Source: an archaeon (lineage in GTDB: Archaea > Nanobdellota > Nanobdellia > SCGC-AAA011-G17 > GW2011-AR20). Taken from it: 64,000 nt of DNA. Positions within the stretch are counted from its first letter, which is position 1. Every line of letters starts with the position of its first letter. Where the stretch lies: positions 111,762 through 175,761 of the forward strand of contig NZCT01000024.1 of assembly GCA_002688355.1 (NCBI GenBank). Direction: 5' to 3'. The notes under the pieces were generated by a model. The model was not told the DNA's origin. It did no database searches and was given only the letters and a program-made list of their open reading frames with translations. Position numbers and translations under genes: made by a program. Positions 17,599 through 64,000 of the stretch are shown one piece after another.

Positions 17599-17599
17599 A

Positions 17600-26340: not shown

Positions 26341-26358
26341 AAGAAATTAAAACAGTAT

Positions 26359-27405: not shown

Positions 27406-27437
27406 AGAAAAAATATCAAAGAAATAAATATTTAAAG

Positions 27438-28421: not shown

Positions 28422-28455
28422 AATAACACTAGAATAAATATTTTTATAAAACTAA

Positions 28456-29403: not shown

Positions 29404-30663
29404 TTATTTGTAAGTTAACCCTCCAACTTTTACTTCATCTTTAAATTTTTTCAATAATTCTCTTAACTGATCTTCATTAAGGTTACTATGATCAATATTA
29501 ACATAATACTCCCCGCCTTTACCAACTTGAAAATATTTACTCCAATCAGAGTTTTCTGGTTTCATAATTTGTATACCATATTTTTCAGGATCTTCCCACA
29601 AAGGAGTACTTGGATAAGGTGTTAAAATATAAGCATCAGCATATTCCAAATTTAAACTTCTAGCAAAATTAATTGTATCTATAGCCGTCTCCCAAGTTTC
29701 TCCAGGCAAACCAATAATAAAAAATCCTTTAACTTTAATACCTGCTTTATGACACATTTCAACACCTTTTCTTTGTATATCCACTGTCATATACTTCTCC
29801 ATTTTTTTTAATACTTCATCATTTCCACTTTCCAATCCTAAACTTACAATATCGCAACCAGCATTTCTTATACTATAACATAGTTCTTGTGTCAATAAAT
29901 TAGCTCTCGTAGTACATCTCCAAGTGATATCTTTTTTAGGGAAATTTTCTGTAATCAGATTACATAGTTTTAAAACCCTATCAAATTTAAATGTGAAAAT
30001 ATCATCTCCAAAATAAAATCCCCTTATATCAAATTTATCATATAACAATCTCATCTCTTTAATAATATTCTCTGGGCTTCTTGCTCTCCATTTTTTAATT
30101 TTAGCAGATCCACAATAAACACAACTAAAGACACATCCTCTTGAGGTAACCATAACAACAGCCTTCTTACCATTTAAATCCATATCATATTTTCCCATGT
30201 TAAGATTATCATAATCTGGGAAGGGCAGTGCATCTAAATCTTCAATAGGTTTAGAAATAATAAGTTTAGTTTCATCACCTCCCAAAATTTTTTTAATAGC
30301 TTCTTCTCCATCGCCAACAACTAAATGATCAAAAGTTTCGTTACTAGTTTTTTCAGTAGGCATATCTGTAATATGATTACCTCCTGCAATTAATTTTATA
30401 TTTGGATACAATTCTCTTATTTTTTTAGCTAGTTTTATACAATCAAAATAATTTGGTGTTGAAACACTAAAACAAACATAATCATAATTATTCTTTAAAT
30501 TTTCAAATAAATATTCTTCATTATCATGATTTAAATCAATTAACTTAGAATTATAACCTAATTTTTTACAATAAGAATCCAATAAAGCTAATCCTAATGG
30601 CAATCTATCTCCTTTTTTATCTAAAAACTTATCTTCAGGATTAACAAATAAAATTGATTTCAT
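29404..30663 (-). CDS. B12-binding domain / radical SAM protein (class B), immediately downstream of pepM
   Basis: N-terminal B12-like domain ([11 protein letters not shown]) and [14 protein letters not shown] (CxxxCxxC). Its stop abuts the next ORF and its start overlaps the pepM fusion gene by 4 bp. Confidence 0.75.
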
Positions 30664-31979
30664 TTTTCTTTTATCATCCCATTCCCATCAGGGATTAAAT
30701 TAATTACTTGTTTTATTGGCATACACAAATCTTCAACTTCATGTGCCCTTTCATTTCTTAAAATAGATTCTGAAACTTTAACCATTGCTGGATACGCTGA
30801 CCTAAGTAAATGATTTGCATAGATTACCATATTAATTCCGTTATCAGCGAGTTCTTTTTCTGTTATATGTGAATATGTTGAAGGCACAACAACCAATGGA
30901 ACTTTATTTTCAAATTCTTTATACTTTTGACAAAATTCTTTAATTTCATCAAAGCTCTTTTCCTTACTATGTATCATTATAGCATCAGCTCCAGCTTCAA
31001 TATATGCCTTAGCTCTCCTTAACGCATCATCCATACCTTTCTTTAGAATCAGACTTTCAATTCTTGCTATAATCATAAAATCTTCTGTTACTTGTGCTTG
31101 TTTACCAAATTTTATTTTATTTGAAAAATCTTCTATTGTATCTTGAGTCTGCTCTACATCAGTTCCATATAAAGAATTTTTCTTTGAGCCAATTTTATCT
31201 TCTATTATAACAGCAGAAATTCCTAATCTCTCCAAAGATTTAACTGTAAAAATAAAATGTTCTGCTAATCCTCCACTATCACCATCTACAACTATTGGTT
31301 TTGTAGTAACTTCCAAAATCTGTTCAATAGTATTTATCCTTGATGTAACGTCAACAGTTGCAGTGTCTGGTTTTCCTTTTGATGTTGAATCAGTTAAACT
31401 GCTTTCCCATATTCCATCAAATTCTCTTAGCTCTCCATTATCTAAAGTAATATTAGTTTTTTCAGCTATTAAACCAGTTAAACCATTATGAGCTTCTAAA
31501 ATTCTTACAATTGGTTTTGCAGCCAATAATCTTCTTAATTTGTTTTTTCTAAGTTCAGGAGTAGTTCCCATTTCCATCATATTTTGTATTAAATCTGTTG
31601 TAGAAACATCTCTTGTGTATTCAGGTTCGATTAATTTTCCACCCCATTCTTTCATTGCTTCAACAATATCATCTCTTTTACCTTTTTGAATTCCAGTCCT
31701 CCAATCCGTACCGTGAACCATGAAATCTGCTTTTAATTTTCTAACATTAGGAACATAATCCCATGTTTCTTGAGGAATAACTTCCTTAACACCTTTTAAA
31801 TTTTCTACAACAACTTTTCTTTGTTCAAAAGTTAAAAAAGGAAGCCTCTTATAATTCGCAATAGCTTTATCTGTAAGTAAACCGACAGTTACATCTCCTA
31901 ATTTTCTCGCTTCTTTAATTATATTAAGATGACCATGATGAACTGAATCACCACTCATTGGAACATATACAATTGTCAT
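30660..31979 (-). CDS. Cytidylyltransferase-phosphoenolpyruvate phosphomutase fusion (Fom1-like CyTase-PepM)
   Basis: N-terminal [21 protein letters not shown] (HxGH nucleotidyltransferase motif, GCT/TagD-like). From ~residue 135: [27 protein letters not shown] and [16 protein letters not shown], which are PEP mutase/isocitrate-lyase superfamily signatures including the EDK motif. Confidence 0.75.
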
Positions 31980-31993
31980 TTTATTCCTCCTTG

Positions 31994-33352
31994 TTAATCA
32001 AACCACTTTTTTGTTTCATTTGCAACTCTCTCTCCACTAGGAAGATATGATAATTCTTTTTGTGTAGAAAGATTTATTGCTCCAGATATACCTAAAGTTG
32101 CAATTCTTCCATTTTCTTCTCCATTATTTGAAAAAGCATGTCTAATAAATGGTTGAATATACATTGAATCTCCTTTACGTAAAATATCATTAAAAGTTTC
32201 TCCATTATGAATCCAACTAAAATCTAAATCAGAATCTCCATAATTATAAACATAAGTATGTAATGAATTATAAAATCCATTTTCAAGATTTTTTTCTTTA
32301 GAAAGAACTTCTATCTCAAAACCTTTCATAAAAGGCATTTTAGAACTTCTAGCTAAAGGATGTAATCTATAATTTTTATTCTCTGCATTAGGATAAAAAT
32401 ATCCTTCTTCTTCATCTTTACGTTTTACTACAACAACTTCTTCATTTGGTTTATAGTCAGGAATCATTAAATCACTAATTTCAATATTTAACACATTAGC
32501 AATTTTCTGTAAATCCTCAAAAGACTTATCTTGATTTTCATCTAAAATTCTATCATCTATTGTTCCATCTAAATCTCTTAAACTTTCTAAAGAAATTCTT
32601 TCATTATCCATATGTTGTTTGATTAATTGACTAACTGCTTTGTTATGATTTCTATAATCTAATGTAAATCCTTCAATAGCTCTTTCACCTAACGCATAAA
32701 ATTCTTTTTGTGCTCTACTTATATCCCCTCCAAATGTAACAGCAATAATAAGAGCTTCGTCTTCTTTACTTCTATTAGTAAAACTATGTGGCCAAAAAGG
32801 TGTTATATAATTAGAATCACCAGTATTCATCTCTTCACAATATCTTTTCCCATTCACTTCATAATAAAAATTAACAGGGCCAATAAAAAAAGTCATTTGA
32901 TGCATAAAATGTCCATTATTATAAGCTACATCAAGATTATTTGGATCACTATTCTCAACATATCTTAATTCTTTAATCCATTCTGGTTTAAAACCACTTA
33001 GCTTTGACATTGCTGTATCTCTATAATCATAATAATCTGTTCTTTCTCCAGTTTTATCTTTTCTATCAAATATTCTACTTGTTTCTTTAGATTCTTCTTC
33101 TCTCATTATTCTTACACCATTTTTACAATCATCTTCTATAAGGTGCAAATCAGAAACATCAATAGGATAACTTAAGCCAATCTTATTTATCAATTCATAT
33201 GTTTCCTCCTTTTTACAATCCCCAGATAATATTGAATTTAGTTTTCCAGCATCCATTCCAACCTCTGTAGCACAAGCTTCTGGAGTTCTCTTTAAATCAT
33301 TTAATTCACTTAATATTCTTGAACCAACTAATTTTAAAAAATCGTCTGTCAT
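31994..33352 (-). CDS. HEPD/MPnS/HppE-family non-heme-iron bicupin oxygenase; candidate methylphosphonate synthase-like enzyme
   Basis: 452 aa with an N-terminal HTH-like segment and cupin core [22 protein letters not shown]...ITPFWPHSF. By direct count the motif residues are H148, Q152, F162, I183 and H189, a 2-His-1-Gln pattern. The gene lies inside the pepM-ppd-adh operon. Confidence 0.6.
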
Positions 33353-34128
33353 TTTCCCCTCCCGTTTGCCTTATCAAAATCTTGAACAGTATCAAACTCT
33401 TTCCAATTTCCCTGAATTATTGTACAGTGTATTTCTTCATTCTCATCTATTAATTCTTGGAAAATATCAGTTATGTAAGCTTTTTGCCATTCCTTTGTAT
33501 TTTGGAATGAATCTAGTTTCTGTAACTTTAAATTTAGTCTATCAAAATGTTTTAAAAAGATTTCTATGCCTTTATAGGTAAATTTCCAAAGTCCAATAAA
33601 CTCTCCTTGTCTATTTTTAGGTGTTTCATGAGTAAAAATATGTTTTCCAATCTTCATAATTTTTTGATTATCATCAAAAATAACATTTTCAGCTTCATCA
33701 ACTGGATGATCTGTTCTTCCTTCATAATAATCTTGCCAATCAATATCAACAACAGCGCTAATATGTTCTTTAGATATTTTTAATTTATTAACAACACTTG
33801 AACCATACCAAATATCAGAATAGCTTATTATAACATCTTCTTTTTCATTTTTAGCTTCTTCTAATTTTTCCCTTGCACAAATTAAAGAATGTAAAATGTT
33901 AGTGTTCCCAAAATCTATATTTTCAAAATATGTTAATTCTGGAAAAATAATCTTTTCTTTTTTATATCCTCTTATTACAGATATATCATTTACCCCATTT
34001 TCTCGTAAAACATCTAAAATATTCTGAAGAATTGGTTTACCTCTAATTTTTAACATGCATTTAGGCGTATCCTCCGTTAAAGGTCTTAACCTTGTAGAAG
34101 GTCCTGCTGCAATAATTATTGCCTTCAT
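33349..34128 (-). CDS. LicC-like nucleotidyltransferase (CTP:phospho-alcohol/phosphonate cytidylyltransferase family)
   Basis: MKAIIIAAGPSTRLRPLTEDTPKCMLKIRGKPIL closely follows the LicC/sugar-NTase N-terminal motif (GxGTRL). Confidence 0.65.
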   Translation of the reverse strand: MKAIIIAAGPSTRLRPLTEDTPKCMLKIRGKPILQNILDVLRENGVNDISVIRGYKKEKIIFPELTYFENIDFGNTNILHSLICAREKLEEAKNEKEDVIISYSDIWYGSSVVNKLKISKEHISAVVDIDWQDYYEGRTDHPVDEAENVIFDDNQKIMKIGKHIFTHETPKNRQGEFIGLWKFTYKGIEIFLKHFDRLNLKLQKLDSFQNTKEWQKAYITDIFQELIDENEEIHCTIIQGNWKEFDTVQDFDKANGRGK

Positions 34129-34171
34129 TCAAAAACAAAAATAAGCAAAATTTATAAGTCTGACTAAAGAA

Positions 34172-35317
34172 TTACATTTCTATCGTACTTAGAATTACAT
34201 TAACATCTTCTTCTGTTGGAACTTCAATACTATTAAACATTCTTTCTGGCGTGAAACCTTCTTTTGTTATTATAGATTTATCGTCAATTTTTGCATCTTT
34301 TAAAGTTAAAGGAGCACCTATTTGGGATTTTAAAGATTGGATACTATCATATAAAATTTCGAAATGATTTTTATTAATCGAAGGGAATATATATTCAACA
34401 AGACCATTTAATTTTTTTCTCACTAAATCAGATCTATCATAGTTAAATTTCAAAATTTCTGGTAAAGTCAAAGCGCAAGCAAACCCATGTTCTAAATCAA
34501 AATGAGCTGTCATTGGATAAGAAAGTGAATGTGCAGGACCTGTAGTTGTCCTACTTATAGCTATACCAGACCATAAACTCGCATACATCATTCTTTCTCT
34601 AAATTTAACTTCGTTAGGGTATTTATAGGTTTTTTCTAAATAACCAAATACTTCAGCTATATTAGTTGGAATAAAATTATCAGTTAAAGAGTTAGAATTT
34701 TTATTAAAATAAGCTTCAAATAATTGAGTCAACGCATCTAATCCAGTTGCTGCAGTGATTTTCCCAGGTAAAGATAAAGTTAATTCAGAATCTAAAATAG
34801 CATAATCAGGACTAACTATATATTTTTCAGGGCCTCCAAAAGATTGTTTCCTTTTATCTTTATAAAAAACAGAAAAAGGTGTAACTTCTGAGCCAGTACC
34901 AGCAGTAGTAGGGATAGCTACAAAAGGGACTTGTTTCTCTTTTATTTTACCTTGAGTAAAGTCTCCATTAAAACCCAAAATTGAAGTATCATTTCTATAA
35001 ACACAAGAAATAATTTTTCCAATATCCATCACAGCACCACCACCTGCACCTATGACCATATCAGAATCATATTCTATCAATTTTTCTAAAGCGTCTTGAA
35101 CTCCTTCAAGTGTTGGAGAACCTTCAACATTATTATAAACAAAAACATCTCTACCATCTAACAAATTTTTCGTTACATCTAAAAATCCTGATTTTTCAAA
35201 AGAATTCTTTCCAGTAACAAGAAATATTCTTTTTGCATCATGTTCTTGAATTATTTCTTTTAATTGATAAAGTCCATTTTCATTGCATATTTTTGTTGGA
35301 ATATTAAAATATTTCAC
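34172..35317 (-). CDS. Iron-containing (group III) alcohol dehydrogenase; candidate phosphonoacetaldehyde reductase
   Basis: GAGGGAVMDIGK glycine-rich Fe-ADH motif, with His-containing metal-site region HSLSYPMTAHFDLEHG. Its position between ppd and pepM matches the FomC/PhpC arrangement. Confidence 0.7.
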   Translation of the reverse strand: MKYFNIPTKICNENGLYQLKEIIQEHDAKRIFLVTGKNSFEKSGFLDVTKNLLDGRDVFVYNNVEGSPTLEGVQDALEKLIEYDSDMVIGAGGGAVMDIGKIISCVYRNDTSILGFNGDFTQGKIKEKQVPFVAIPTTAGTGSEVTPFSVFYKDKRKQSFGGPEKYIVSPDYAILDSELTLSLPGKITAATGLDALTQLFEAYFNKNSNSLTDNFIPTNIAEVFGYLEKTYKYPNEVKFRERMMYASLWSGIAISRTTTGPAHSLSYPMTAHFDLEHGFACALTLPEILKFNYDRSDLVRKKLNGLVEYIFPSINKNHFEILYDSIQSLKSQIGAPLTLKDAKIDDKSIITKEGFTPERMFNSIEVPTEEDVNVILSTIEM

Positions 35318-36378
35318 TTTATTGCTTCCATAAATCTCTTAGTTATTTCTTCAGGTAATAATTCAATTCTCTCAATATCTTCTAGATTGCCTTTCTTAAC
35401 ATTAACTAATAAAAAATTAGGGCCATCCAATTCCAATAATTCTTTAATAACCTTTTCTAAATTCTCCTTATCATTAACTTTTCTAGAGTTTGTATATCCA
35501 CAAGCTAAAGCAATATCTTTAATCTCAGTTGTATTTGATGTAGTTCTTTGTCCTCCTGTAGAAGACCAAGATTCATTATCTAAACAAATATGTAAAAAAT
35601 TCTTAGGTTTAATATTTCCAATTGTAGATAAAACTCCAAGATGCATTAAAGCAGCACCATCACCATCTAAAACAATTATTTTCTCTTTAACTTCTTTAGC
35701 AATACCCAATCCAATAGATGAAGCATGACCCATTGAACCAATAACATAAAAATTTTTAGGAGCATCATCCGCTTTATTTAACTCTCTTGAGATCATTCCA
35801 GTAGTAGAAATTCTAATCATATCTTTTGTATTATTTGCTATTAATTCTACAGCGTCATATCTAGACATTTCGTAATTTGTTTTATGTTGAGATTCATATT
35901 TTTCTATAAATTCAGGATTAACAATTAAAGCTACTGTACTTGTATTTTCCAATTCATCATTAGCCCATTTAATATCATCAAAAGATTCTAAAACTTTAGA
36001 TTTAATATTAGCTAATTCTAAAAACTCTTTAGTATTCTCCCCCATATACCAATGTTCAGGAGCATCTTTTTTATTAGCAGGATTACCTCTCCATCCAACT
36101 AATAATAAACTTTTAGTGTTGTACAAATTATTCAAAGAAGTTTGAGGGTTAATTAAATTCCCAATACCAGCATTTTGCATCATTACAACAGGTTTTTTCC
36201 CAGTTAAATAAGAACCAGCACCTCTTGAAAAAGCTAAACCTTCATTAACATCAGGAATATATTCATTTTTCAAAGTATCTAAATAATTAAAAAATCCACC
36301 AAATGAAGAATCAGCAACACCCATAAAAGGACCAAAATTATATTTTTTCAATTCTTGATACAATTCTTCAGGTTTCAT
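35314..36378 (-). CDS. Phosphonopyruvate decarboxylase-like thiamine-diphosphate enzyme
   Basis: TPP-binding motif GSMGHASSIGLGIAKEVKEKIIVLDGDGAALMHLG (GDG...N). The 354-aa size and gene context with pepM support the call. Confidence 0.7.
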   Translation of the reverse strand: MKPEELYQELKKYNFGPFMGVADSSFGGFFNYLDTLKNEYIPDVNEGLAFSRGAGSYLTGKKPVVMMQNAGIGNLINPQTSLNNLYNTKSLLLVGWRGNPANKKDAPEHWYMGENTKEFLELANIKSKVLESFDDIKWANDELENTSTVALIVNPEFIEKYESQHKTNYEMSRYDAVELIANNTKDMIRISTTGMISRELNKADDAPKNFYVIGSMGHASSIGLGIAKEVKEKIIVLDGDGAALMHLGVLSTIGNIKPKNFLHICLDNESWSSTGGQRTTSNTTEIKDIALACGYTNSRKVNDKENLEKVIKELLELDGPNFLLVNVKKGNLEDIERIELLPEEITKRFMEAIK

Positions 36379-52984: not shown

Positions 52985-53641
52985 CTAGTTACTTGGTAAA
53001 ACATTTAAAAGAGTGTAAGCAAGTTTATCAGCTGCTTTAATTAATTCATCAGAGTCCTTACCCTCAACTATAATACATTCATCTTCAGATGTAACTGAAG
53101 TTGTTTCTCCAATTCTAAACAATATAACACCTATCCTTGAACTAGTACTCTTACAAGTCTTAACAGGTCTAGAAGTACCAGTCTCAACAGTCGTAGCAAC
53201 TTCTGTAGGAATTTTAAATATACCCCACTCAGCATTACCCACTACTCTTCCAACTTCAACTGTAGCTAAAACAGCCTTAGCGTCTAGTTCTGGATTTATA
53301 GTTATAAACAACTTTTCCTTACTAATTATTTTTTTTCTTACATCATCCTCTATAAATAAATCCTCTAATTCTTTAGGTCCATTCCTAAAAGAAGTATCAT
53401 AAATATGCCCAATTCCTTGAAAAACAGTATATGTAGTCAATTTATGCATAGTTAGCTCATCATTAATTTCTCTTGTTGTAAAAGGGAATTTCTCTCCTGT
53501 TTCTTTATTTTTATAAGAATACTCATTATCAAAGAAAACACCACCAATAAGATAAATGCTCCCTAATAAAACTATAAAAAACACTATAACATACATGAAA
53601 TTATTTATTCTTCTATTCTTCAAACTAGTTTCTTCATTCAT
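52985..53641 (-). CDS. Hypothetical membrane-anchored protein (single N-terminal TM helix)
   Basis: N-terminal hydrophobic segment FMYVIVFFIVLLGSIYLIGGVFF followed by a ~180-aa soluble domain. The gene is downstream of and co-oriented with the S-layer-like gene. Confidence 0.3.
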   Translation of the reverse strand: MNEETSLKNRRINNFMYVIVFFIVLLGSIYLIGGVFFDNEYSYKNKETGEKFPFTTREINDELTMHKLTTYTVFQGIGHIYDTSFRNGPKELEDLFIEDDVRKKIISKEKLFITINPELDAKAVLATVEVGRVVGNAEWGIFKIPTEVATTVETGTSRPVKTCKSTSSRIGVILFRIGETTSVTSEDECIIVEGKDSDELIKAADKLAYTLLNVLPSN

Positions 53642-54189
53642 TCTATCCCTAGGAATCTATAGTTTAATTTATCAATGTATCTATCAAGTTCAATATCATC
53701 ACCTTGTAAAACTAGGCACTTATTATCAATATAACTCTCACTTTGATTATCTTTTTTTAAGTATATAGCATCACTATTACAATCTCTAACAGGAATATCT
53801 AAATCACAATTCTCTTCCCCACTACACGCAAATACAGGCCGTATGCTTAAAGATGTTAGCCCAACTGCAGTTTTCTGCATCAAGAAATTAAAGCTCTCAT
53901 CATTATCTTCTGGGTCAAATATAATATACATTTTATCTGTAAAAAAACTAAATTCAGGAACTATAATATCCACTAATGTATCAGGAAGATAACTAAAAAC
54001 AACTTGCACTCCATTTCTATCAACAAACCAAAGACCATTATTAGCTTGTTGTATCTCTACTCCATTTACATTAACAGAATTACCATTATTACCACTAGAA
54101 TCATTTCCATAAGGTAAAATAAAACCTAACACACTACTTACCATTAAAAATATAATAATTGAACCAAAAATAATTTTTTTCTTGTCCAT
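53638..54189 (-). CDS. Hypothetical secreted/anchored protein (N-terminal signal/TM)
   Basis: MDKKKIIFGSIIIFLMVSSVLGFIL signal/anchor segment, then an Asn/Gly-rich linker, with Cys pairs in the C-terminal half. Confidence 0.3.
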   Translation of the reverse strand: MDKKKIIFGSIIIFLMVSSVLGFILPYGNDSSGNNGNSVNVNGVEIQQANNGLWFVDRNGVQVVFSYLPDTLVDIIVPEFSFFTDKMYIIFDPEDNDESFNFLMQKTAVGLTSLSIRPVFACSGEENCDLDIPVRDCNSDAIYLKKDNQSESYIDNKCLVLQGDDIELDRYIDKLNYRFLGIE

Positions 54190-54271: not shown

Positions 54272-56521
54272 TTAAGCCGATGTTACAATTGTTGGACTTG
54301 ATGCTGTTCCAGCAACTTTAACTGAAGTTCCACTCAATTGTGAACTAAATGCGTTGTAGCTTTGTAAGACTTTTGCTGCTCTTCTTGTATCGTCTCCAGT
54401 CCATCCAGAAACAACCAATGCAACATTATCTCCATTGTCCTTTATTTCAAGGACAGCTTCACCTTCTTGTAGTCCAGAGTCTGCTCCGTATGCCGGATAA
54501 GTCTTTCCTAAGAACTGTGCACTTAGTCTATTTACAGCAGGTCCACCAATCAAAATTAAGTTATGGTTTGCTGGCGTAGTAACTTCTGTGTCTAACATTG
54601 CGTCAGGCGCTGTAGCATATGTAGAAATCGCTGCTCCACCACTACTTCCACCACTAACAACAGTTGCTCCAGTTCCTGGTTTAACAACTACATTTACTTG
54701 TACTTGATCTCCAGGTATGCTTAATTCAACTCTATCACTTGCACCATTACTCTTTGGGTCTTTGATGATAGTACCATATCTCGTTCTATGGTTCTCATCT
54801 TTAGTACCAACATTAGTACCTTCCCAATTAACTTCTCCAGCTTCTTCACTAGATTTAGTTGCTCCTAATTGAGTTACTCCACCTGACGAATTAGTCCAAG
54901 ACGTATAGAGTGTATCTCTTTGTGCAGTTAAGTCATCAGTTGAATCTCCAACAGCATCCAGTTGCAATACCCAACCTGTAATATTTGCAGTTCCAGGTGG
55001 TTGACCAGTAGGCGTATTTGTTCTATTCAACACTAAGTTTGTAGATTTTGTATCGTCAAACTGAATCTGAGCAAATCCAACACCACTAGTTGCATTACCT
55101 GCAAATGTCTTCTTCTTCAAGTCTTTATCGTGATAATATACACCATTATCAGTCAACCATAATTCTTTTGTTTCTTTATCAGCTGAGATATTACCCAAAC
55201 CAGATCCAGATTGAATTAATTTTATCTGATCATCTTTTTGTGCCTTAACATGTAACACATTTGCATTTGAAAGACCAGGTACTTTAGTATCTGAAGTCAA
55301 GTCTATACCTTCCACTAATTCCAGTGTAAGATCAAAGTAGTTATCATCTGCAACAGTTAAACTGTCAAGACAAATACTTACATAGCTGTTTGGTAAGTCA
55401 ATACAAGAACCTTGTTCAATAGCATCAGAATCTGAGCCATCTCTATAGTTCCAATCATTTTCTATACCAATAAATGATCCCGAATTAGATGCATTTATTT
55501 GAGCTGTGTATGAATTACTAACAGTTGTTGTTCCTTTAGTATTCAAATTTCCAAGGTCCCAAATCCATTTTGGATCATCCTCATCTTCACCGATGTATTC
55601 ATCTCCATCAGAATAACTTTCAGTAGCGTCTTTACCAACTACTAAAAATGCTGATCTCTCAGCTTTATCATCTGTGTAGAATGTATCATCGTTTTTAATC
55701 TCTAGTCCATTAACGGTTTTAGTTGTATCTGCAGAAACTGATTCTTGTGTTCCGTCAACATCAACAAGAACATTACCACCAGAACCTACTTCTTTCAAAG
55801 TGATAGTTTTACCCTCAACGTCAATAGTATCATCTATTTTTACAAAGTATTCAGATCCTACATTTGCTGTAAATTTAGTTGCTGAATCAATAGATGTTAT
55901 CTTTAGAGATTTTCCTAAAAATTTAATATCTAAAGCATCACTTGATGATGTTGTATTAATTTGGATTGTTTCATCAAACGCATAATAATATTTTATAGCA
56001 TCTGATACAACTTCCATAACTACATTGTCTTCATAGTCATCATCTGTAGCTGTTAAACTTGTTTCAGCACTCACATTATTTAAATTGTTTACACCTAATT
56101 CAAGTCTTTCACTTACATCATAGTCACTTCCTTGGAAACTAATTGTAGTATCCAAAAGTGTAGAAATATCACTATCTGTCAAACTTCTTTCAACTTGATT
56201 TCTTGCAGCAACATTACTTCCAAGAGGAATATCTTCTGTTACTCCACCTGCAACTGTTACTGTTCCACCACCACTTGTTCCTGGAACAGGTACTGCACTT
56301 AAACTTGTTGCAATGTCTGTTAAAGCTAAATTATCAATACTTTTAGCATCGTCACCAACAACACCTAGATAATCAAATTTTTTGTCTGCTGTATTAACAA
56401 ACGGTGCGGGATAGTTACCCAAATCAGCTTGAGCTAAAGCCCCTGTAAGAGACATTCCTAGCATTGCTGCACCAGTAGAAATAGCACTAATTTTTTTAAT
56501 CATACTCTTTATATTTTGCAT
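54272..56521 (-). CDS. Secreted surface (S-layer-like) protein, about 750 aa
   Basis: Probable start is MQNIKSMIKKISAISTGAAMLGMSLTGALAQA, a signal peptide with AQA cleavage-site-like motif (the track ORF extends to 56548). The protein is Thr/Ser/Asp/Gly-rich with almost no Cys. The C-terminal segment NHNLILIGGPAVNRLSAQFLGK...VALVVSGWTGDDTRRAAKVLQ resembles surface-layer C-terminal domains. It has a strong upstream repeat element and a downstream T-tract terminator. Confidence 0.5.
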   Translation of the reverse strand: MQNIKSMIKKISAISTGAAMLGMSLTGALAQADLGNYPAPFVNTADKKFDYLGVVGDDAKSIDNLALTDIATSLSAVPVPGTSGGGTVTVAGGVTEDIPLGSNVAARNQVERSLTDSDISTLLDTTISFQGSDYDVSERLELGVNNLNNVSAETSLTATDDDYEDNVVMEVVSDAIKYYYAFDETIQINTTSSSDALDIKFLGKSLKITSIDSATKFTANVGSEYFVKIDDTIDVEGKTITLKEVGSGGNVLVDVDGTQESVSADTTKTVNGLEIKNDDTFYTDDKAERSAFLVVGKDATESYSDGDEYIGEDEDDPKWIWDLGNLNTKGTTTVSNSYTAQINASNSGSFIGIENDWNYRDGSDSDAIEQGSCIDLPNSYVSICLDSLTVADDNYFDLTLELVEGIDLTSDTKVPGLSNANVLHVKAQKDDQIKLIQSGSGLGNISADKETKELWLTDNGVYYHDKDLKKKTFAGNATSGVGFAQIQFDDTKSTNLVLNRTNTPTGQPPGTANITGWVLQLDAVGDSTDDLTAQRDTLYTSWTNSSGGVTQLGATKSSEEAGEVNWEGTNVGTKDENHRTRYGTIIKDPKSNGASDRVELSIPGDQVQVNVVVKPGTGATVVSGGSSGGAAISTYATAPDAMLDTEVTTPANHNLILIGGPAVNRLSAQFLGKTYPAYGADSGLQEGEAVLEIKDNGDNVALVVSGWTGDDTRRAAKVLQSYNAFSSQLSGTSVKVAGTASSPTIVTSA

Positions 56522-56668
56522 TGAACACACCTCCATGTGTTTTCCCACGTAGGGATTCGATTTTTATTATTTATTAACATTAGCCAGATAGTATTAACCT
56601 AACTCCTATGTTATCAAGTTAAAATAAAATCTGATTTATAAACATTTCTCTACTAAAACATATATGAA

Positions 56669-56774: not shown

Positions 56775-57209
56775 TTATCGTCTTTGATAACACAAATTTA
56801 AGTCTACTTCTATGTTAGTAGATAAAGGTTGTGTTGAGGCAGCAATTCTCTCTCTACACGTTCCTCTTTTCAAACTATATGGTTCGAATTCATAGTTTAT
56901 ATTATCTTCAAGGCTATTATCAAGTATTTTAGTTATTTTTTCCTTTAATTCCTCACAAGAACCACAATTTCCATTACCAATCTCATCACAATTAAGAATT
57001 TCATCTTTTATACTAACTCTATTACACAACGTTGTTTTTAAAACAGAATTTCTCAAATTATTTGCCTTTACTTCTAAAATTCTATCAGCGTCGCTGTTAT
57101 CACTAGAATTTATTTTCAAATATAAAAATAATACAAATATTAACACTAATAAAACAACTATAATAACTAACCCAAAAGATTCTATCTGTCCTTTTTTTAG
57201 TTGAACCAT
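56775..57209 (-). CDS. Archaeal type IV pilin-like protein (class III signal peptide)
   Basis: MVQLKKGQIESFGLVIIVVLLVLIFVLFLYL: a KG|Q prepilin-peptidase-type site followed by a hydrophobic helix. The C-terminal region has Cys pairs. Confidence 0.6.
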   Translation of the reverse strand: MVQLKKGQIESFGLVIIVVLLVLIFVLFLYLKINSSDNSDADRILEVKANNLRNSVLKTTLCNRVSIKDEILNCDEIGNGNCGSCEELKEKITKILDNSLEDNINYEFEPYSLKRGTCRERIAASTQPLSTNIEVDLNLCYQRR

Positions 57210-57673
57210 TTAATCTCCAATACACCAGATTTATATTCTTTTAACCCTGGGTAATACAATGAAATAGGTGTTGTTAAAATATTAACATTTTCTTTATTAC
57301 CATTATCATCATACAAAACAAATTCATTACAATCGGGATAGTTACTTGCATCACACACACCCTCGCTGTTAAGTGGATAAATTTCCCTAATTCTTATCTC
57401 CATAAAACCTAATTTTTCTAATTTTAGATTAACTAATTTACTAGTATCAATACTATTTTCTTCTTGTCCTAAGTTACTATAAACTACATTAGGATCATTT
57501 GGTAAAGTGCTTAACAAATTTAAAACTCTATTTCTCTCGAATTCATTTCCCAAATCCTCGACGCTAGCTATGTTATATCTATAAAAAATAGTTATACTTA
57601 ATATCAAAATAATACTAAATACAATTAAGACAATAATAGTTTCATTAATCTGCATTATTCCTTTTTTATTCAT
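57197..57673 (-). CDS. Archaeal type IV pilin-like protein (class III signal peptide)
   Basis: MNKKGIMQINETIIVLIVFSIILILSITIFY. Confidence 0.5.
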   Translation of the reverse strand: MNKKGIMQINETIIVLIVFSIILILSITIFYRYNIASVEDLGNEFERNRVLNLLSTLPNDPNVVYSNLGQEENSIDTSKLVNLKLEKLGFMEIRIREIYPLNSEGVCDASNYPDCNEFVLYDDNGNKENVNILTTPISLYYPGLKEYKSGVLEIKWFN

Positions 57674-57679
57674 TTTTTC

Positions 57680-58543
57680 TTAAAAAACGCCAACACAACC
57701 TTGTCCAATTAATCTTGTATTTTCCTCGTCTAAATCTTTAGCTATTTCATAATCTAAATTACTTTGTAAATTATTAATATAATCAATTACCAAATTATAA
57801 TTGCAACTAACTCTATTAATAACATTAATTTTACTTTTATAGACGTTACCAACATTATTTGTTTCTTCTTTTATTTTATCTAACAAACAAGAATAATCAT
57901 CTCCAAAGATAGCACCATATAATAATTCTCTACCAACATAAATTTTCTCTTCACCATTAACGATTACAGTTCCTTGATTAATATCTCCATTAACCTTCAC
58001 ACCTTTATTATCAAAACCACTTGCATCTAAAAATATTAATTTTCCATCATTTTTTAAATTACTAGATCTTATAACTGAAAACTTCTTCCTTATATCTTCG
58101 GGCATATTTTCTAATAGTTCTGAACTTAATGTACCAAAATCTTCAACAAAATAATACTTAGCATCATCTGGGATTATATAATAAAAACTTGAAATCTTAA
58201 AAGGTAATTTATATGGTTCATACCAAATTAATATTTTTTTATCTAGTTGCCTAGGTGAAAATATAATATTCTTCGTCTTAACTTCCCTTTCTTCTGCATT
58301 TAATTTTCCACATCTACTTGTAATTTTTACAGGCAAATTTAACGTATCAAAAGTCTTAAACGAACTTGCTTGTAAAGCTGTTAATGTATTATCTAAATTA
58401 TTAATTATTTCAGTATTAGTTTTACTCTCTTGAAAATCTTTATATTTAATTGCAAAACTAACAAAGAAAAATAAAAATAATGCTCCAACCACGACGATAA
58501 AAATCCAATTAAACTGAAATTGCCCTTTTTTCATTTTATTCAA
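57680..58543 (-). CDS. Archaeal type IV pilin-like protein (class III signal peptide)
   Basis: MNKMKKGQFQFNWIFIVVVGALFLFFFVSFAI. Confidence 0.6.
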   Translation of the reverse strand: MNKMKKGQFQFNWIFIVVVGALFLFFFVSFAIKYKDFQESKTNTEIINNLDNTLTALQASSFKTFDTLNLPVKITSRCGKLNAEEREVKTKNIIFSPRQLDKKILIWYEPYKLPFKISSFYYIIPDDAKYYFVEDFGTLSSELLENMPEDIRKKFSVIRSSNLKNDGKLIFLDASGFDNKGVKVNGDINQGTVIVNGEEKIYVGRELLYGAIFGDDYSCLLDKIKEETNNVGNVYKSKINVINRVSCNYNLVIDYINNLQSNLDYEIAKDLDEENTRLIGQGCVGVF

Positions 58544-59048
58544 CTTTACTTATCTCAACAAAATTCTCTCCATCAAGAAACTTACTTTCTAAAACAAAAC
58601 TAAATGCACCATTTATTATCCTAAAACATAATGGATTTTCACTAACTTTTAAACCATTAACATCAAAAGAATATTTATCTTTAAACGGAAGCAAGACAAC
58701 ATTATCATTTATATTTTCCAATACAATTTTTTCATCATCATTTAAATTAGTTAAATCTAAACTTTCATCTTTATTTATCACACAAATTTTACTAACGTCT
58801 TCTGGTAAAGCCAAGGGTTTCCTACTTGATCCTTTAGAATATTCTATCAAACTTCCAGGACTTTTATAAAAAATATCATTGACTTCTTTATCTAATTTAT
58901 TCTTAAAGTCAATTAACTTAGCTTCTTCACCCACATCTAAAAATTTTGAAATCATGTTAAATCCAAATATAAAAACAAACCCAACTACAACAATAATAAG
59001 AATATAAACAAAAACTTGTTGGATCATTCCTCTTTTACTTTTAAACAT
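58536..59048 (-). CDS. Archaeal type IV pilin-like protein (class III signal peptide)
   Basis: MFKSKRGMIQQVFVYILIIVVVGFVFIFGF. Confidence 0.5.
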   Translation of the reverse strand: MFKSKRGMIQQVFVYILIIVVVGFVFIFGFNMISKFLDVGEEAKLIDFKNKLDKEVNDIFYKSPGSLIEYSKGSSRKPLALPEDVSKICVINKDESLDLTNLNDDEKIVLENINDNVVLLPFKDKYSFDVNGLKVSENPLCFRIINGAFSFVLESKFLDGENFVEISKVE

Positions 59049-59123: not shown

Positions 59124-59735
59124 CTATAACGTATCAGAAGATACATCAAAAACATTGTATTTTATTTTTAATTTCTTTAAATCTTTAATTAAATCATTAC
59201 TTCTCTCAATTGGGATTATAAAAACACCTCTAGATATCTTTTTACCATTACTCTTTTCTATAATACCTTTACTTATGTAAGTTTTATTTTTCCTTTTTTG
59301 TTTACTACCATATAATTTCCTCCAAAGTCTAACTTTATCTTTAAATTCTCCTTTAAATTCAACTGTAAATAAAGAATAATTATTTCCTCTAATTTTTTCT
59401 TTAAATGAAGAATATAAAACTAAACCATTGCCAACTATAGATCTTTTTAAATCAGGAAAATCATCTAATTTCCCACTAATAACTCTTATTTGGTTCTTTA
59501 CATTTAAAGGTTTCCAATATTTTAAATATTTAGCTGACTGATAAAATTCATCAGTTATTTTATTAATTTTATCTTCAATATTTACCCCACTTTCGATAAA
59601 AATATCAACATCACTTTCTTTTGTTGCTTCTCCCCTAACAACACTACCAAATAAAAATATTCTATCAATTTCCTTATTATCTAAATTATACAACAAATAA
59701 GATACAAAATCATAAGCAAAACTAACTAATTTCAA
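59124..59735 (-). CDS. Minimal nucleotidyltransferase (Pol-beta superfamily, MNT-like)
   Basis: RIFLFGSVVRGEATKESDVDIFIE matches the GS-x9-11-DxD NTase signature. Confidence 0.6.
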   Translation of the reverse strand: MKLVSFAYDFVSYLLYNLDNKEIDRIFLFGSVVRGEATKESDVDIFIESGVNIEDKINKITDEFYQSAKYLKYWKPLNVKNQIRVISGKLDDFPDLKRSIVGNGLVLYSSFKEKIRGNNYSLFTVEFKGEFKDKVRLWRKLYGSKQKRKNKTYISKGIIEKSNGKKISRGVFIIPIERSNDLIKDLKKLKIKYNVFDVSSDTL

Positions 59736-60126
59736 TTTTAACTCCTAAACTTTCAATCAAATCTTTAAATTCATAAAGATAGTTTAATGTATTATCAATT
59801 AACTCCAATGGTTGTTTCTTTCCATAGCATAATATATTTCTTTTTTCTTCTATTCTAAACAACAAATCAAGAATTTTCTCTTTTCCTTCAAAATCAAAAT
59901 CTAATTTTTCTTTAACTTTGTTCTTAGATTTAAACCATTCATGTTTTAATAAATAGTCCACCTTTAAAATTCCTTTTTCATGTAAATACAACTCAAGAAT
60001 ATTTACTGCAACTAATGAAACATTAAATCCTACTGTTGTCTGCTTTTCTTCAATACCTTTATCAATAGCCCATTGAATAGCAGAAAAGCCTTCCTTAATT
60101 ATTCTTATGTGATTTTCACTTAACAT
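59722..60126 (-). CDS. Small helical protein, putative HEPN-like partner of the adjacent NTase
   Basis: 134 aa, immediately upstream of the MNT-like gene with a 14-bp overlap, which is the canonical HEPN/MNT gene order. A Rx4-6H motif was not confidently identified. Confidence 0.35.
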   Translation of the reverse strand: MLSENHIRIIKEGFSAIQWAIDKGIEEKQTTVGFNVSLVAVNILELYLHEKGILKVDYLLKHEWFKSKNKVKEKLDFDFEGKEKILDLLFRIEEKRNILCYGKKQPLELIDNTLNYLYEFKDLIESLGVKIEIS

Positions 60127-60202: not shown

Positions 60203-63200
60203 TTAAAGCTTAGGATAAACACTTAAAACATTAGAAGTTTGTCCAGTAAATTCATGTTTACATAACACATGGAACACTTCATTATCATCTATTACTTGAC
60301 CATGTGTTATCATATCATTAGAAGTTAACTCTACACCATCATCAAAACTAAATTCTTTATTATCGTTACTAAATCTACAAGTTGCTTTCTCATCTGTTCT
60401 AATATTTAATATACCTCCAGATGAAGTATAAATAGCATTTACTGTAGGTATTAAACCAGTATTAACTTCTACTTCTAATAATTTTTCATCAAAATTACCA
60501 GCTAAATCTCTACACCACGTATATATATCATAACTTCCAGATTGCAACGGTAAAGATTGTGTATGTTTAACATCATCTGTAACTTCAAATTTAAACCTAT
60601 TTGGGTCTAAAAATTTAGTAAAACTATATTCACAGCTTGCCTTTCCATTCTCAGCACCTTCACTAGTCTCTAACTCTAAAATAACATCTTCAGCATAAAC
60701 TAATCCATTAGGTTTCGCAGAGTCTATCTTTAGTCCCTTAGTTCCTCTTAAATTTAAACTAGTACTCTCACTATTAATATTTCCCGCTAAATCCTTACAT
60801 CTAAAGAAGAATGTATTATCTTTATTATCTTCTAAATCTTCCAACTTTGCAGAACATGCAAATTGATTATTTCCTGTTCTTCCCTGTAAGCACGTTGTAT
60901 TAAAACCCATTAAATCATAATTCTTATCACTTGCAGAGAATCTACAACCACCTTGAGCTAATACTGGTTCATTTGTAAATACCAAAATATCTGTTTTATT
61001 CAATCCTTTAGGGATAAATGAATTATCATTAATACTAAAACCTTCTATTACTGGAGGTTGTGGATCAGGACCAGTGTCAACTTCGAATTTAATAAAAAAT
61101 GGCGCTTCTTTTTTATTTCCATTGTCATCTTTACATTTAACATAATAAATATTTTCTCTTCCGGCATATGCCAATATTTGATTATCATCAATTTGAATTT
61201 CTGTCCCTTCACTTCCTGGTGGAGATGCAGGTATATTTGCAGCATTAATAGTCATGATATGTTCTTTCTTAAGTCTAGTATCCTCAAATACTTTCATCTG
61301 ATCATATTCTAAACTTGGTGAATTATCGATTACGCATGTTGCAAATTCATTTGTTTCAACCCCAATTTTAATATTTGCAAATGGATCTAACTTTTCTTTA
61401 AACTCATAACCTTCAAAAGCACCTAATCTTGAAGGGAAAATAAAATCATTCTCCGTTTTTGGATCTACTGGTAAAAGCTTGATTGTCGGAAAAATTATAT
61501 CATTTTCATCTACCCATATACATGTTTCATTACCAACAAAAAATTCATTCTTTAATTCACATGCACGTCCTAAACTCTCACATTTATATTTTGTACATTC
61601 ATTAAAATCATTGCATCTTTCACAATTTTTTCCACCATCAGGCGGAACCCAAGCATTACATGTATATTCATAAGTTATTGTAGCATCATCAGTTCCAAAG
61701 TAATTCAAAATTAATATTAATGCCGCAACACCTATAACAGCAACTGTCGCTATAGCTGCTATTGAAGCAGGAGTACTTAATGTTGCTACTGAAGTACCTT
61801 TAACTGCCGCTGCAGTACCACCAGTAGCAAATATATCAACAGTTCCAAAACTCAAAACAGCGCCTAGAGTTCCAAATGACAAGGATCCTCCAAGGAAAAT
61901 AGCTGAAAAAGCTATTGCTCCTCCTGCAGTACCAAGTAAAATATTTGCCGCTGTTCTACCACTATCTGGTTTATCAGAATCTACAAAACTAGCAAAAGCT
62001 AAATCTAAATTATATAATTGAAAATACAAACTACCATTTAAAGGTTCTTCAACTTTATTATTAAATGGATATATTGGTAAATTAACTCCTCTAATAGATA
62101 TAATATTTCCATTTGTTTCTATAACACTAGGTTCACCATCCAATCGATCATCAGGTCCAAAAGCAGTAAATCCATTTCCCTTATCACCTAAAACATTGTA
62201 GTTAAATCCACAATCACCTAAACTTCTACAAAAATTTTGCAATCCTTCAATATACTCAGGATTTGTACAATCAGAATTTGATTGTTTTTCATAGCTAATA
62301 CTAAAAGGACCATTATACCAATATTCCTTACATGTCCAAACTCCATTCTCTCCAAAGTTCCTCTCACAACTATTTCCACTTAAATCTCCTTCAGGAACAG
62401 CTGGGCTACAAACTTTTATTGCATCATTCCAAAAACATTTTCCGAAAGCAGCTTCACCACAAGCATTTTTTCTACATAACTGTTTTTTACCACATTCAAA
62501 TCTTTCATCGTCTTTCAAATCTGAACATTCTCCAATTGCAGTTCTTGCTTCTTCTAATTCCTCGCCACTCAAACTGCAAGTTCCATCATCTTGAACATTA
62601 AGGCTCAAACACTCATCTGCATTATTAGGTTGACACTTAGCAGAACTATAATCAAAACTCAATCCACTTACACTTTTAGGGATAACTCCCTGTGCACATA
62701 TTTCATTTCTATTTTCTTGACAAGTTTCAACCTTAACTTTACCATTGAAACAACTTCTTTTATAATGCTCAGAACCAACTAAATCATTTCCTTTTCCAGT
62801 TACACCTTCATATTCACACCATTCTTCCCCATTAGCTCTAAAATCTCTTCCACTTAAATCATCTTCCCAAAATAAATTAGTATCACTAGTTTCAAGATCT
62901 TTACAACTTAAATCTCCACACCAAAATTTTAATTTATCATCTGAAACAGGAACACCATCTGGAATTCCTGTACAAATACTTCCTTTGCTAAAGTCACAAT
63001 TTCCACAAGTCAAACTTTCAACATTATTTGAATTAGCATTACAACTATCACTTGGAGAAACTCTCTTACCATCTGTCCTATAATTTGTACCATAAATATT
63101 TTCAGGATTGTTATCTGAATCGAACCAATAAACTTTTTCTTTAAAACAACCAGTATGGTGTTTTTCAGTTACTTGACACCCATATTCAGAAAAACTACAT

Positions 63201-63871
63201 AAACCATTAGGTTTAAACTCACCATTTTTACTAGAGCATTCTGCTGCTGTAGCAAAAGAACATTCATTTGGTAAAACACAACATCCTGTATTTAAACTTC
63301 TTGATTCAGATAAACAAGCATTTTCAGTAGGTACAGAAGCATCAAAAACAGTACTTAGCCTTAAGCTTCCATAATCTTTTATAGCACTTGCACATTTTGC
63401 TTGTGTTATAAAAGCGCTTCCTGTTGGTAAAGCACAACACCCTTTTTGGCAAACTTGAATAGTTTCTTTTGTACCTACATTAAACTGTCCACCTTGATCT
63501 AAACATACGCCTTTTAATGTATTTGAATTACATACTCCATCAACAATACAAACACCAGGTTTACAATCTTCAGTTTGTTCACAAGTTGTTCCACTTGGTT
63601 GTCCAGCTGTTAAATCACAATTATTAGAACTAGTATAAACACAACTTTCTCCTTTATATTCACTTTCTTGTTTAGTTCTTTGACAACAAACATTTAAACC
63701 AGTATTTTCACTAGTCCCTTGATATCCTACAAAATCTTCACTATATTCATATTCTTGAAGTTCATTAGAAGCACTTACAGGGCTTAACAAATGAATACTA
63801 AACACACTAGAAATAACTACACTAATTAAAAAAATTGCAATTACCTTTAAAATATTTTCACTTCTTTTCAT
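60203..63871 (-). CDS. Giant (1222 aa) cysteine-rich secreted/membrane protein with mid-protein TM cluster and C-terminal tandem repeat domains
   Basis: N-terminal signal/anchor MKRSENILKVIAIFLISVVISSVFSIHLLSPVSA. It is followed by ~600 aa containing ~70 Cys. A Gly/Ala-rich hydrophobic block of ~85 aa follows (ILLGTAGGAIAFSAIFLGGSLSFGTLGAV...VAVIGVAALILILNYF). The ~500-aa C-terminal region carries repeated motifs: CKDDNGN, CRFS...FRCKDLAGN, WCRDLAGN and CRFS...CKHEF. Confidence 0.5.
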   Translation of the reverse strand: MKRSENILKVIAIFLISVVISSVFSIHLLSPVSASNELQEYEYSEDFVGYQGTSENTGLNVCCQRTKQESEYKGESCVYTSSNNCDLTAGQPSGTTCEQTEDCKPGVCIVDGVCNSNTLKGVCLDQGGQFNVGTKETIQVCQKGCCALPTGSAFITQAKCASAIKDYGSLRLSTVFDASVPTENACLSESRSLNTGCCVLPNECSFATAAECSSKNGEFKPNGLCSFSEYGCQVTEKHHTGCFKEKVYWFDSDNNPENIYGTNYRTDGKRVSPSDSCNANSNNVESLTCGNCDFSKGSICTGIPDGVPVSDDKLKFWCGDLSCKDLETSDTNLFWEDDLSGRDFRANGEEWCEYEGVTGKGNDLVGSEHYKRSCFNGKVKVETCQENRNEICAQGVIPKSVSGLSFDYSSAKCQPNNADECLSLNVQDDGTCSLSGEELEEARTAIGECSDLKDDERFECGKKQLCRKNACGEAAFGKCFWNDAIKVCSPAVPEGDLSGNSCERNFGENGVWTCKEYWYNGPFSISYEKQSNSDCTNPEYIEGLQNFCRSLGDCGFNYNVLGDKGNGFTAFGPDDRLDGEPSVIETNGNIISIRGVNLPIYPFNNKVEEPLNGSLYFQLYNLDLAFASFVDSDKPDSGRTAANILLGTAGGAIAFSAIFLGGSLSFGTLGAVLSFGTVDIFATGGTAAAVKGTSVATLSTPASIAAIATVAVIGVAALILILNYFGTDDATITYEYTCNAWVPPDGGKNCERCNDFNECTKYKCESLGRACELKNEFFVGNETCIWVDENDIIFPTIKLLPVDPKTENDFIFPSRLGAFEGYEFKEKLDPFANIKIGVETNEFATCVIDNSPSLEYDQMKVFEDTRLKKEHIMTINAANIPASPPGSEGTEIQIDDNQILAYAGRENIYYVKCKDDNGNKKEAPFFIKFEVDTGPDPQPPVIEGFSINDNSFIPKGLNKTDILVFTNEPVLAQGGCRFSASDKNYDLMGFNTTCLQGRTGNNQFACSAKLEDLEDNKDNTFFFRCKDLAGNINSESTSLNLRGTKGLKIDSAKPNGLVYAEDVILELETSEGAENGKASCEYSFTKFLDPNRFKFEVTDDVKHTQSLPLQSGSYDIYTWCRDLAGNFDEKLLEVEVNTGLIPTVNAIYTSSGGILNIRTDEKATCRFSNDNKEFSFDDGVELTSNDMITHGQVIDDNEVFHVLCKHEFTGQTSNVLSVYPKL

Positions 63872-64000
63872 TCTTCAACAAAACTCCTTGTAGCATATTG
63901 GAATGAATAAGGATTATCTCTTAAATTTAAGATATACACTTTACTACCCCTCACAGCTTGTCTTTCTATCTCTACCTCACCTCTATTTCTTAACATGTAA

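Follow-up and report, generated by a model that had tools for sequence, protein, structure and literature searches.

The window analyzed here, 64,000 nucleotides (nt) of contig NZCT01000024.1 from an archaeon of the GW2011-AR20 lineage, encodes four consecutive small proteins, A, B, C, and D, and the end of a fifth, P5, all of which are very probably pilin-like in nature. They carry N-termini of the prepilin (class III signal) type, keep their order in related loci, and are accompanied by a giant surface protein, and the module is consistently unlinked to a pilus motor. The favored reading, held with moderate confidence and weighed about evenly for and against, is that P5 and A–D constitute a prepilin-type set made in fixed proportion with the giant protein, and that the five proteins of this set would be cleaved in trans, bundle through their helices, and present the giant protein. 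A preliminary description of this DNA had reported four consecutive open reading frames (ORFs), each with a basic leader and a hydrophobic helix, and these are present on the minus strand as follows (aa, amino acids; a slash marks the predicted cleavage site).

A: 58536..59048, minus strand, 170 aa; pilin-like protein with a class III signal (KRG/MIQQVF...), conserved Cys89/Cys141, first gene of the A-B-C-D series.
B: 57680..58534, minus strand, 284 aa; pilin-like protein (KKG/QFQFNWIF...) with four conserved Cys; an alternative TTG start at 58543 would give 287 aa.
C: 57197..57673, minus strand, 158 aa; pilin-like protein (KKG/IMQINET...) with an invariant Glu at +6 and conserved Cys107/Cys115.
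D: 56775..57209, minus strand, 144 aa; pilin-like protein (KKG/QIESFGLV...) with near-invariant Q+1, E+3, G+6, and L+7 and conserved Cys74, Cys118, and Cys140.

The N-terminus of A is MFKSKRG/MIQQVFVYILIIVVV, that of B is M(NKM)KKG/QFQFNWIFIVVV (NKM being the difference between the ATG and TTG starts), that of C is MNKKG/IMQINETIIVLIVF, and that of D is MVQLKKG/QIESFGLVIIVV. The four leaders are basic, comprise three to seven residues, end in K/R-G, and are followed by a hydrophobic helix of ~20 residues, which is the only hydrophobic segment of each protein. The start of B is most likely the ATG at 58534, in agreement with the public gene call, and every gene in the public annotation (CL617_03750-03780) is listed as "hypothetical protein". 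With this start, 1 nt separates A from B, whereas a true overlap, of 13 nt, exists between C and D; of the two pairs described earlier as overlapping or abutting, C/D overlaps and A/B abuts. Similarly, the Cys pairs attributed to the larger proteins are present there without being restricted to them, as the Cys count is even in all four (A 2, B 4, C 2, and D 6), at positions conserved within each family.

Conservation of the prepilin-type N-termini

A strict class-III-like filter was applied to the 176 ORFs of at least 40 aa in the window. It matched A, B, D, and the giant protein, whose Sec signal is an ordinary one, and nothing else; C was missed for the sole reason that it has a conserved Glu at +6. 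Among unique orthologues of the five families, 229 of 246 have K/R at position -2 together with G (137), A (72), or S (20) at -1, and most of the remaining 17 were lost to contig ends. The median length of the predicted leader is four to five residues across the families, and the motif persists in orthologues down to ~25% identity.

This count presupposed the motif. In an unbiased version, the residue scored was the one that follows the last K/R ahead of the first hydrophobic window, and the fraction of G/A/S at this place was 1.00 in P5, 0.98 in A, 0.98 in B, 0.90 in C, and 0.95 in D, as against 0.22 and 0.21 in two control families of single-pass membrane proteins from the same loci, E and F (listed below). 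The N-termini are therefore class III-like rather than those of generic signal anchors. This bears out the prepilin-type signature first noticed in the window, and it counts against the possibility raised along with it, that the N-termini might behave as uncleaved anchors. Cleavage of A–D and P5 by a class III signal peptidase is predicted on these sequence grounds.

The N-terminal part is also where the families are best kept. Mature residues 1-25 are the most conserved part of every family, with a column entropy of 1.24–1.57 bits compared with 1.75–2.33 bits later in the proteins. Each family has its own signature at the mature N-terminus: Q-V/I-T-V/I-F in P5, x-x-x-F-N-W-I-F in B, Glu at +6 (100%) in C, and Q+1 and E+3 (97%) followed by G-L in D. 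A buried Glu is thus found in D (+3, 97%) and C (+6, 100%), while B, the largest member, has none. In profile–profile comparison (hhalign), the resemblance between families is confined to the leader and the first helix (alpha1), which fits pilins of one system.

Glutamine at +1 is found in 100% of P5, 97% of D, 52% of B, 31% of C, and 29% of A sequences. The proposal that a Gln in this position marks the proteins as EppA-type pilins is weakened, because it is near-invariant in D and P5 only, being variable in A, B, and C, and because the corresponding family, PF04021 (DUF361), has no match. The register of that family, QxSxExxxL, also differs from that of D, which is Q-x-E-x-x-G-L.

A conserved gene block around a giant surface protein

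The surroundings of A–D contain further genes of the block, together with one inserted cassette (S-layer, surface layer).

P5, 3' end: 63868..64000, minus strand; fifth pilin-like gene, 256 aa in full, overlapping the start of the giant gene and running past the window end.
Giant protein: 60203..63871, minus strand; 1222 aa with 62 Cys and a Sec signal peptide, the conserved partner of the pilin-like set.
NTase/HEPN-like cassette: 59124..60126, minus strand; a 203-aa nucleotidyltransferase (Polbeta/MntA-like) and a 134-aa partner, outside the conserved module.
S-layer protein: 54272..56548, minus strand; Methanococcales type (PF05124/TIGR01564) with a Sec signal and without a membrane anchor, 226 nt after D.
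E and F: 52985..54189, minus strand; single-pass membrane proteins of 183 and 218 aa without the K/R-G/A/S signature, a coupled pair beside the S-layer gene.

P5 begins with MFDSKKRG/QVTIFIILG, and only its last 44 codons lie inside the window. Related loci were gathered from 13 GTDB species, 64 metagenomic sequences, and several long contigs, the families were mapped by hidden Markov models (HMMs), and 79 non-redundant loci were counted. All of A, B, C, and D are found, in this order, in 46 of the 79, and the order is violated in none. Of the 49 loci with enough sequence ahead of A, 48 have a giant protein upstream; 44 of these 48 belong to the Cys-rich family of the window, and the other four are an Ig-repeat protein of 1,800–2,100 aa with a C-terminal transmembrane (TM) segment and a conserved basic tail. 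Downstream, 38 of the 43 loci that extend far enough past D have the S-layer gene next. The whole block, P5-giant-A-B-C-D-S-layer-E-F, is kept while the flanking genes vary by lineage, which indicates that the block itself is what is maintained. One operon holds four to five distinct pilin-like genes together with one large non-pilin surface protein.

The spacing inside the block is tight. No insertion occurs at the junctions P5/giant, C/D, and E/F, where the median spacing is -1, -4, and -1 nt, respectively, and A and B overlap or abut whenever they are uninterrupted. Such spacing fits stoichiometric co-expression and is compatible with the stoichiometric set suggested at the outset. The gap between D and the S-layer gene, on the other hand, always measures 185–396 nt, suggesting a separate promoter for the latter. 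Three junctions are "soft" and receive inserted cassettes (L008-L068): giant/A in 18 of 44 loci, A/B in 14 of 69, and B/C in 14 of 56. The inserts consist either of two small genes, HEPN/MNT-like or PIN-like pairs resembling toxin–antitoxin systems, or of one gene of ~300 aa. In the window, it is the NTase/HEPN-like cassette that separates the giant gene from A, and more distant relatives are without this insertion. The adjacency of the set to a giant Cys-rich protein, as first described, is hence upheld as a linkage and not as direct neighborhood.

The giant protein has a weak Ig-like match close to its C-terminus. Residues 641–728 (61688-61951) form a Gly/Ala-rich hydrophobic stretch between two Cys-rich ectodomains, and the position of this stretch is conserved in several relatives (L010-L012, L016, and L019), while in another (L009) the gene is split near the same point. 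The stretch may form a TM hairpin or have another nature, and the protein appears to be membrane-anchored. The two membrane proteins on the other side of the block, E and F, carry conserved Cys and keep beside the S-layer gene even where the pair is inverted (L016, L018, L019, L079, and L087); the pair is a candidate anchor for the S-layer protein, which itself has none.

Relatives of these genes were found in Woesearchaeota/Nanoarchaeota (DPANN) only, including the complete GW2011_AR20 genome (CP010426). The B family has 1,294 cluster representatives (E <= 1e-3) and is without a Pfam model, and the D family has at least 220 relatives. In a distant lineage (L020, 7811-17015; likewise L022 and L023), at least 14 consecutive genes encode proteins with K/R-G/A and a hydrophobic segment, some of them only 95–123 aa long. 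This run sits behind an Ig-repeat giant of 2,100 aa, whose cytoplasmic tail is Lys-rich and conserved. The runs of L020, L022, and L023 gave no Pfam match, and neither an ATPase nor an S-layer gene lies nearby. The presence of a buried Glu in some families and its absence in others, among them the largest member, B, together with runs of at least 14 genes that include pilin-sized members, supports a pilus-type system.

Predicted folds, assembly machinery, and alternative readings

Scans of A–D, P5, 60 members of the B family, and the extra genes of L020 against Pfam and NCBIfam returned no pilin family and nothing above threshold. When sequence profiles of the four families were compared with solved structures, the only pilin listed was PilE1 of S. 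sanguinis, a non-significant match (E = 0.45) to the helix of A, which was rejected.

B and D were modeled by AlphaFold2 with family alignments. The model of B (pLDDT 94.2, pTM 0.86) has a helix at residues 3-54, followed by a beta-sheet domain and four C-terminal helices. In that of D (pLDDT 88.6), a kinked alpha1 (9-34 and 38-58) leads to two short helices and a four-stranded sheet, with the conserved Cys118/Cys140 near the C-terminus. Both models thus show an alpha1 of pilin type, ~50 residues long, whose C-terminal half packs against a globular head, and both heads are mixed alpha/beta rather than an all-beta Ig-like sandwich. When the two folds were compared with solved structures, no pilin or archaellin was among the matches; B was without any fold match in the Protein Data Bank (PDB), and the nearest fold to the D head was that of PDC/Cache domains. 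As modeled, the heads of B and D are domains without close solved counterparts.

Under the favored reading, each pilin-like protein would be inserted with its head outside the cell, and a signal peptidase of class III, encoded elsewhere, would cut after the conserved K/R-G/A/S. Once freed, the hydrophobic alpha1 helices could gather in a bundle, giving either a short heteromeric stalk of pilus type or a tip/initiation complex, from which disulfide-stabilized heads would face outward. The set would be made together with the giant Cys-rich surface protein in fixed proportion and would position or present it in or through the S-layer, probably for host or surface attachment, while an ATPase, a platform protein, and a major subunit, if there is one, would work in trans. 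Cleavage, helix bundling, association with the giant protein, and a role in adhesion are all steps that we infer. As A–D always come with P5 and a giant protein, usually with the S-layer gene, and never with a pilus motor, their probable role is to make up a short stalk or tip complex of pilus type within the cell envelope.

Several results weigh against this reading. The archaeal pilin and archaellin families PF07790 (Pilin_N), PF01917 (Arch_flagellin), and TIGR02537 were unmatched, and PDB sequence profiles gave no significant match for any of the four families. Minor-pilin sets are usually co-encoded with their machinery, and here the two are unlinked. No FlaI/PilB-type ATPase, FlaJ/TadC platform protein, or A24 peptidase was found in 82 kb of the scaffold of 224 kb, made up of the window and ~18 kb on its outer sides, none of the three was detected by motif within ~10 kb of the module in 89 loci (879 kb), and the window holds no candidate for a small major pilin. 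In addition, the tight linkage of the S-layer gene to the module is at odds with a long adhesive fiber, and the TM-like segments present in most full-length giant proteins fit poorly with a tip adhesin on such a fiber. Because of these segments, the role of tip adhesin or cargo first proposed for the giant protein is doubtful.

The preliminary description had called for a search of the genome for a prepilin peptidase and an assembly ATPase; the search, partial in that it covered the 82 kb of scaffold and the 89 related loci, detected neither. Three long contigs of distant lineages, examined through their precomputed Pfam annotation, were also without an ATPase, platform protein, or peptidase. 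As background, genes for FlaI-, FlaJ-, and pilin-like proteins are reported in Woesearchaeota (PMC6642349), ATPase/TadC pairs of archaea are reported to be able to work with pilin sets from other loci, and a 2016 survey of type IV pili (T4P) in archaea could not identify the pilins that belong to nanoarchaeal ATPases (PMC4858521). A predicted archaeal secretion system defined by arCOG01314, MoxR, and vWA proteins (PMC5898192) was considered as well and rejected, with zero components present.

The TM-like segments of the giant protein, the lack of a linked motor, and the S-layer linkage keep open a second explanation, the strongest of the alternatives and still a tentative one, namely an envelope scaffold. 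In this case, the five proteins, cleaved or not, would be held in the membrane by their N-terminal helix and, in a fixed pseudo-periplasmic complex together with the giant protein and E/F, would anchor or organize the anchor-less S-layer, for which no ATPase would be needed; a loose parallel would be ArlF/ArlG. This would account for an S-layer gene after D in 38 of 43 loci within a block that is kept between variable flanks, for an S-layer protein without a TM segment, for the TM-like segments of the giant protein, and for the fact that ATPase, platform, and peptidase genes never lie nearby in the 89 loci. The D head would also fit, as it is like membrane-anchored PDC/Cache domains whose alpha1 continues from the TM helix. 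However, a plain anchor leaves unexplained the near-universal K/R-G/A/S and the conserved polar or acidic residues that adjoin it, both of which are lacking in E and F. Furthermore, the giant-A-B-C-D core occurs without an adjacent S-layer gene in L015, L020, L022, L023, and L084, the 185–396-nt gap after D suggests separate promoters, and the HMMs of Arch_flagellin and ArlF/ArlG are unmatched.

A related proposal, which we consider unlikely, would make the nine genes (P5, giant, A–D, S-layer, E, and F) a self-contained envelope organelle of Woesearchaeota, in which a motor-independent helical stalk of five subunits, integrated in the S-layer, holds the giant protein for host attachment. If true, class III signal proteins would be used outside ATPase-driven type IV filaments.

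It is very unlikely that the module is a pseudopilus similar to that of type II secretion, in which five pseudopilin-like proteins (as GspG/H/I/J/K) would act as a piston or conduit to export the giant protein, the S-layer subunits, or both across the envelope or insert them there. The close clade does have exactly five pilin-like families beside two very large or abundant exported proteins, and its large member B is without a buried acidic residue, as is GspK, the cap pseudopilin of the type II secretion system. However, none of the loci has an ATPase or platform gene, ordinary Sec signal peptides are present on both the giant and the S-layer protein, an outer membrane that would have to be crossed is lacking in archaea, the Gsp pseudopilins showed no structural similarity, and distant lineages encode far more than five such genes.

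Another function, highly improbable here, is that of surface receptors or binding proteins with class III signals, similar to the sugar-binding proteins of the Sulfolobus bindosome, rather than structural pilins. The nearest fold of the D head, the PDC/Cache domain, is indeed ligand-binding; yet no ABC transporter or substrate-binding-protein domain occurs in or near the module, and a fixed set of five families whose N-terminus is best kept points to a structural assembly. The explanation that the proteins are ordinary uncleaved signal anchors with a coincidental K/R-G start is disfavored to the same degree: positive residues ahead of a TM helix are generic and no HMM recognizes a pilin domain, but G/A/S at -1 reaches 0.90–1.00 against 0.21–0.22 in the controls, the feature is common to five adjacent families in 79 loci, and the models have the extended alpha1 of pilins.

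Genomic setting, related systems, and significance

The window comes from a 224-kb scaffold of TARA Oceans that was also assembled from the 0.1–0.22 µm mesopelagic fraction, with a G+C content of ~28%. A large island for surface-glycan biosynthesis makes up the remainder of the window; it encodes glycosyltransferases, NeuB, phosphoenolpyruvate (PEP) mutase, radical S-adenosylmethionine (SAM) enzymes, and epimerases. Within it, 24211-36378 contains sugar genes of phosphonate type and nonulosonic-acid type, including a PEP mutase-cytidylyltransferase fusion, a thiamine pyrophosphate decarboxylase-like enzyme, an iron-containing alcohol dehydrogenase (Fe-ADH), NeuB, and several B12-binding radical SAM enzymes, which suggests an unusual surface glycan, possibly decorated with phosphonate. 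Three genes similar to ATP-citrate lyase or citryl-CoA synthetase/lyase (15543-18331) are also found inside the island of this small DPANN-type genome, with the domains ATP-grasp_2 and Citrate_bind, CoA_binding and Ligase_CoA, and the C-terminal domain of Citrate_synt. On the source scaffold ~5 kb past the window end (L024, 4165-5555), a DsbA/Thioredoxin_4 protein of 285 aa adjoins a 168-aa protein with five TM-like segments; the two are plausibly an extracytoplasmic disulfide-forming pair, situated near many Cys-rich exported proteins.

In the Epd pilus of Methanococcus maripaludis, the minor pilins EpdA-C go with the EppA peptidase, while the major pilin, EpdE, is encoded at a separate locus. 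This system resembles the present module in having several different class-III-signal pilin-like genes per operon, some of them with Q+1. In contrast, the Epd locus has its own peptidase, ATPase, and platform protein, which the module never has, and the families described here are without DUF361/PF04021 and have alpha/beta rather than all-beta heads. Pilin genes may sit apart from the other components of a system (preprint 10.64898/2026.04.22.720090).

In bacteria, the FimU-PilVWX/PilY1 set of type IVa pili and the GspH/I/J/K set of type II secretion are likewise composed of four to five pilin-like proteins in fixed order, accompanied by one very large non-pilin surface protein. In common with those sets, the present families resemble one another over the leader and alpha1 only, some members have a buried Glu and others lack one, and D shows the layout of alpha1, linker, and four-stranded sheet, its conserved Cys118 and Cys140 being near the C-terminus. 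No sequence or fold homology of these sets to the present families is detectable, however, and in contrast to PilY1-type systems, the giant protein here appears to be membrane-anchored rather than soluble, no machinery is linked, and the module belongs to an archaeon, one that has an S-layer.

Among archaea, minor-pilin sets together with large Cys-rich adhesin-like or S-layer-like proteins that have a C-terminal TM anchor are common in T4P loci (Makarova, Koonin & Albers 2016, PMC4858521). The loci of Thermoproteales and others share with the module diverse small Cys-conserved secreted proteins, a large membrane-anchored surface protein, fast evolution, and annotation as "hypothetical" (PMC4858521). 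They are, however, defined by ATPase/TadC genes, which the present block lacks in every locus, and the present families are unrelated to theirs by sequence and confined to DPANN. ArlF/ArlG (FlaF/FlaG), which are archaellin-like and bind the S-layer, also have an N-terminal hydrophobic pilin-like helix and a connection to the S-layer, the latter suggested in the present case by gene adjacency alone; they differ in that the present families have no Arch_flagellin match and no beta-sandwich heads, and no archaellum genes are present.

"Dark-matter" pilins in DPANN have been noted before (PMC4858521; PMC6393860). A literature search found no description of the five families, their invariant order, their full separation from machinery, or the S-layer-linked block. 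DPANN archaea are thought to be host-attached, and their attachment structures are largely unknown. For Woesearchaeota, the module offers concrete candidates for a pilus or attachment apparatus, in the form of five large families with clear prepilin-type signatures, outside Pfam and NCBIfam, whose genes stay coupled to that of a giant surface protein and, within one clade, also to an S-layer gene. It also makes motor dependence a sharp question for this pilin-like set, as none of the loci encodes it beside a motor.

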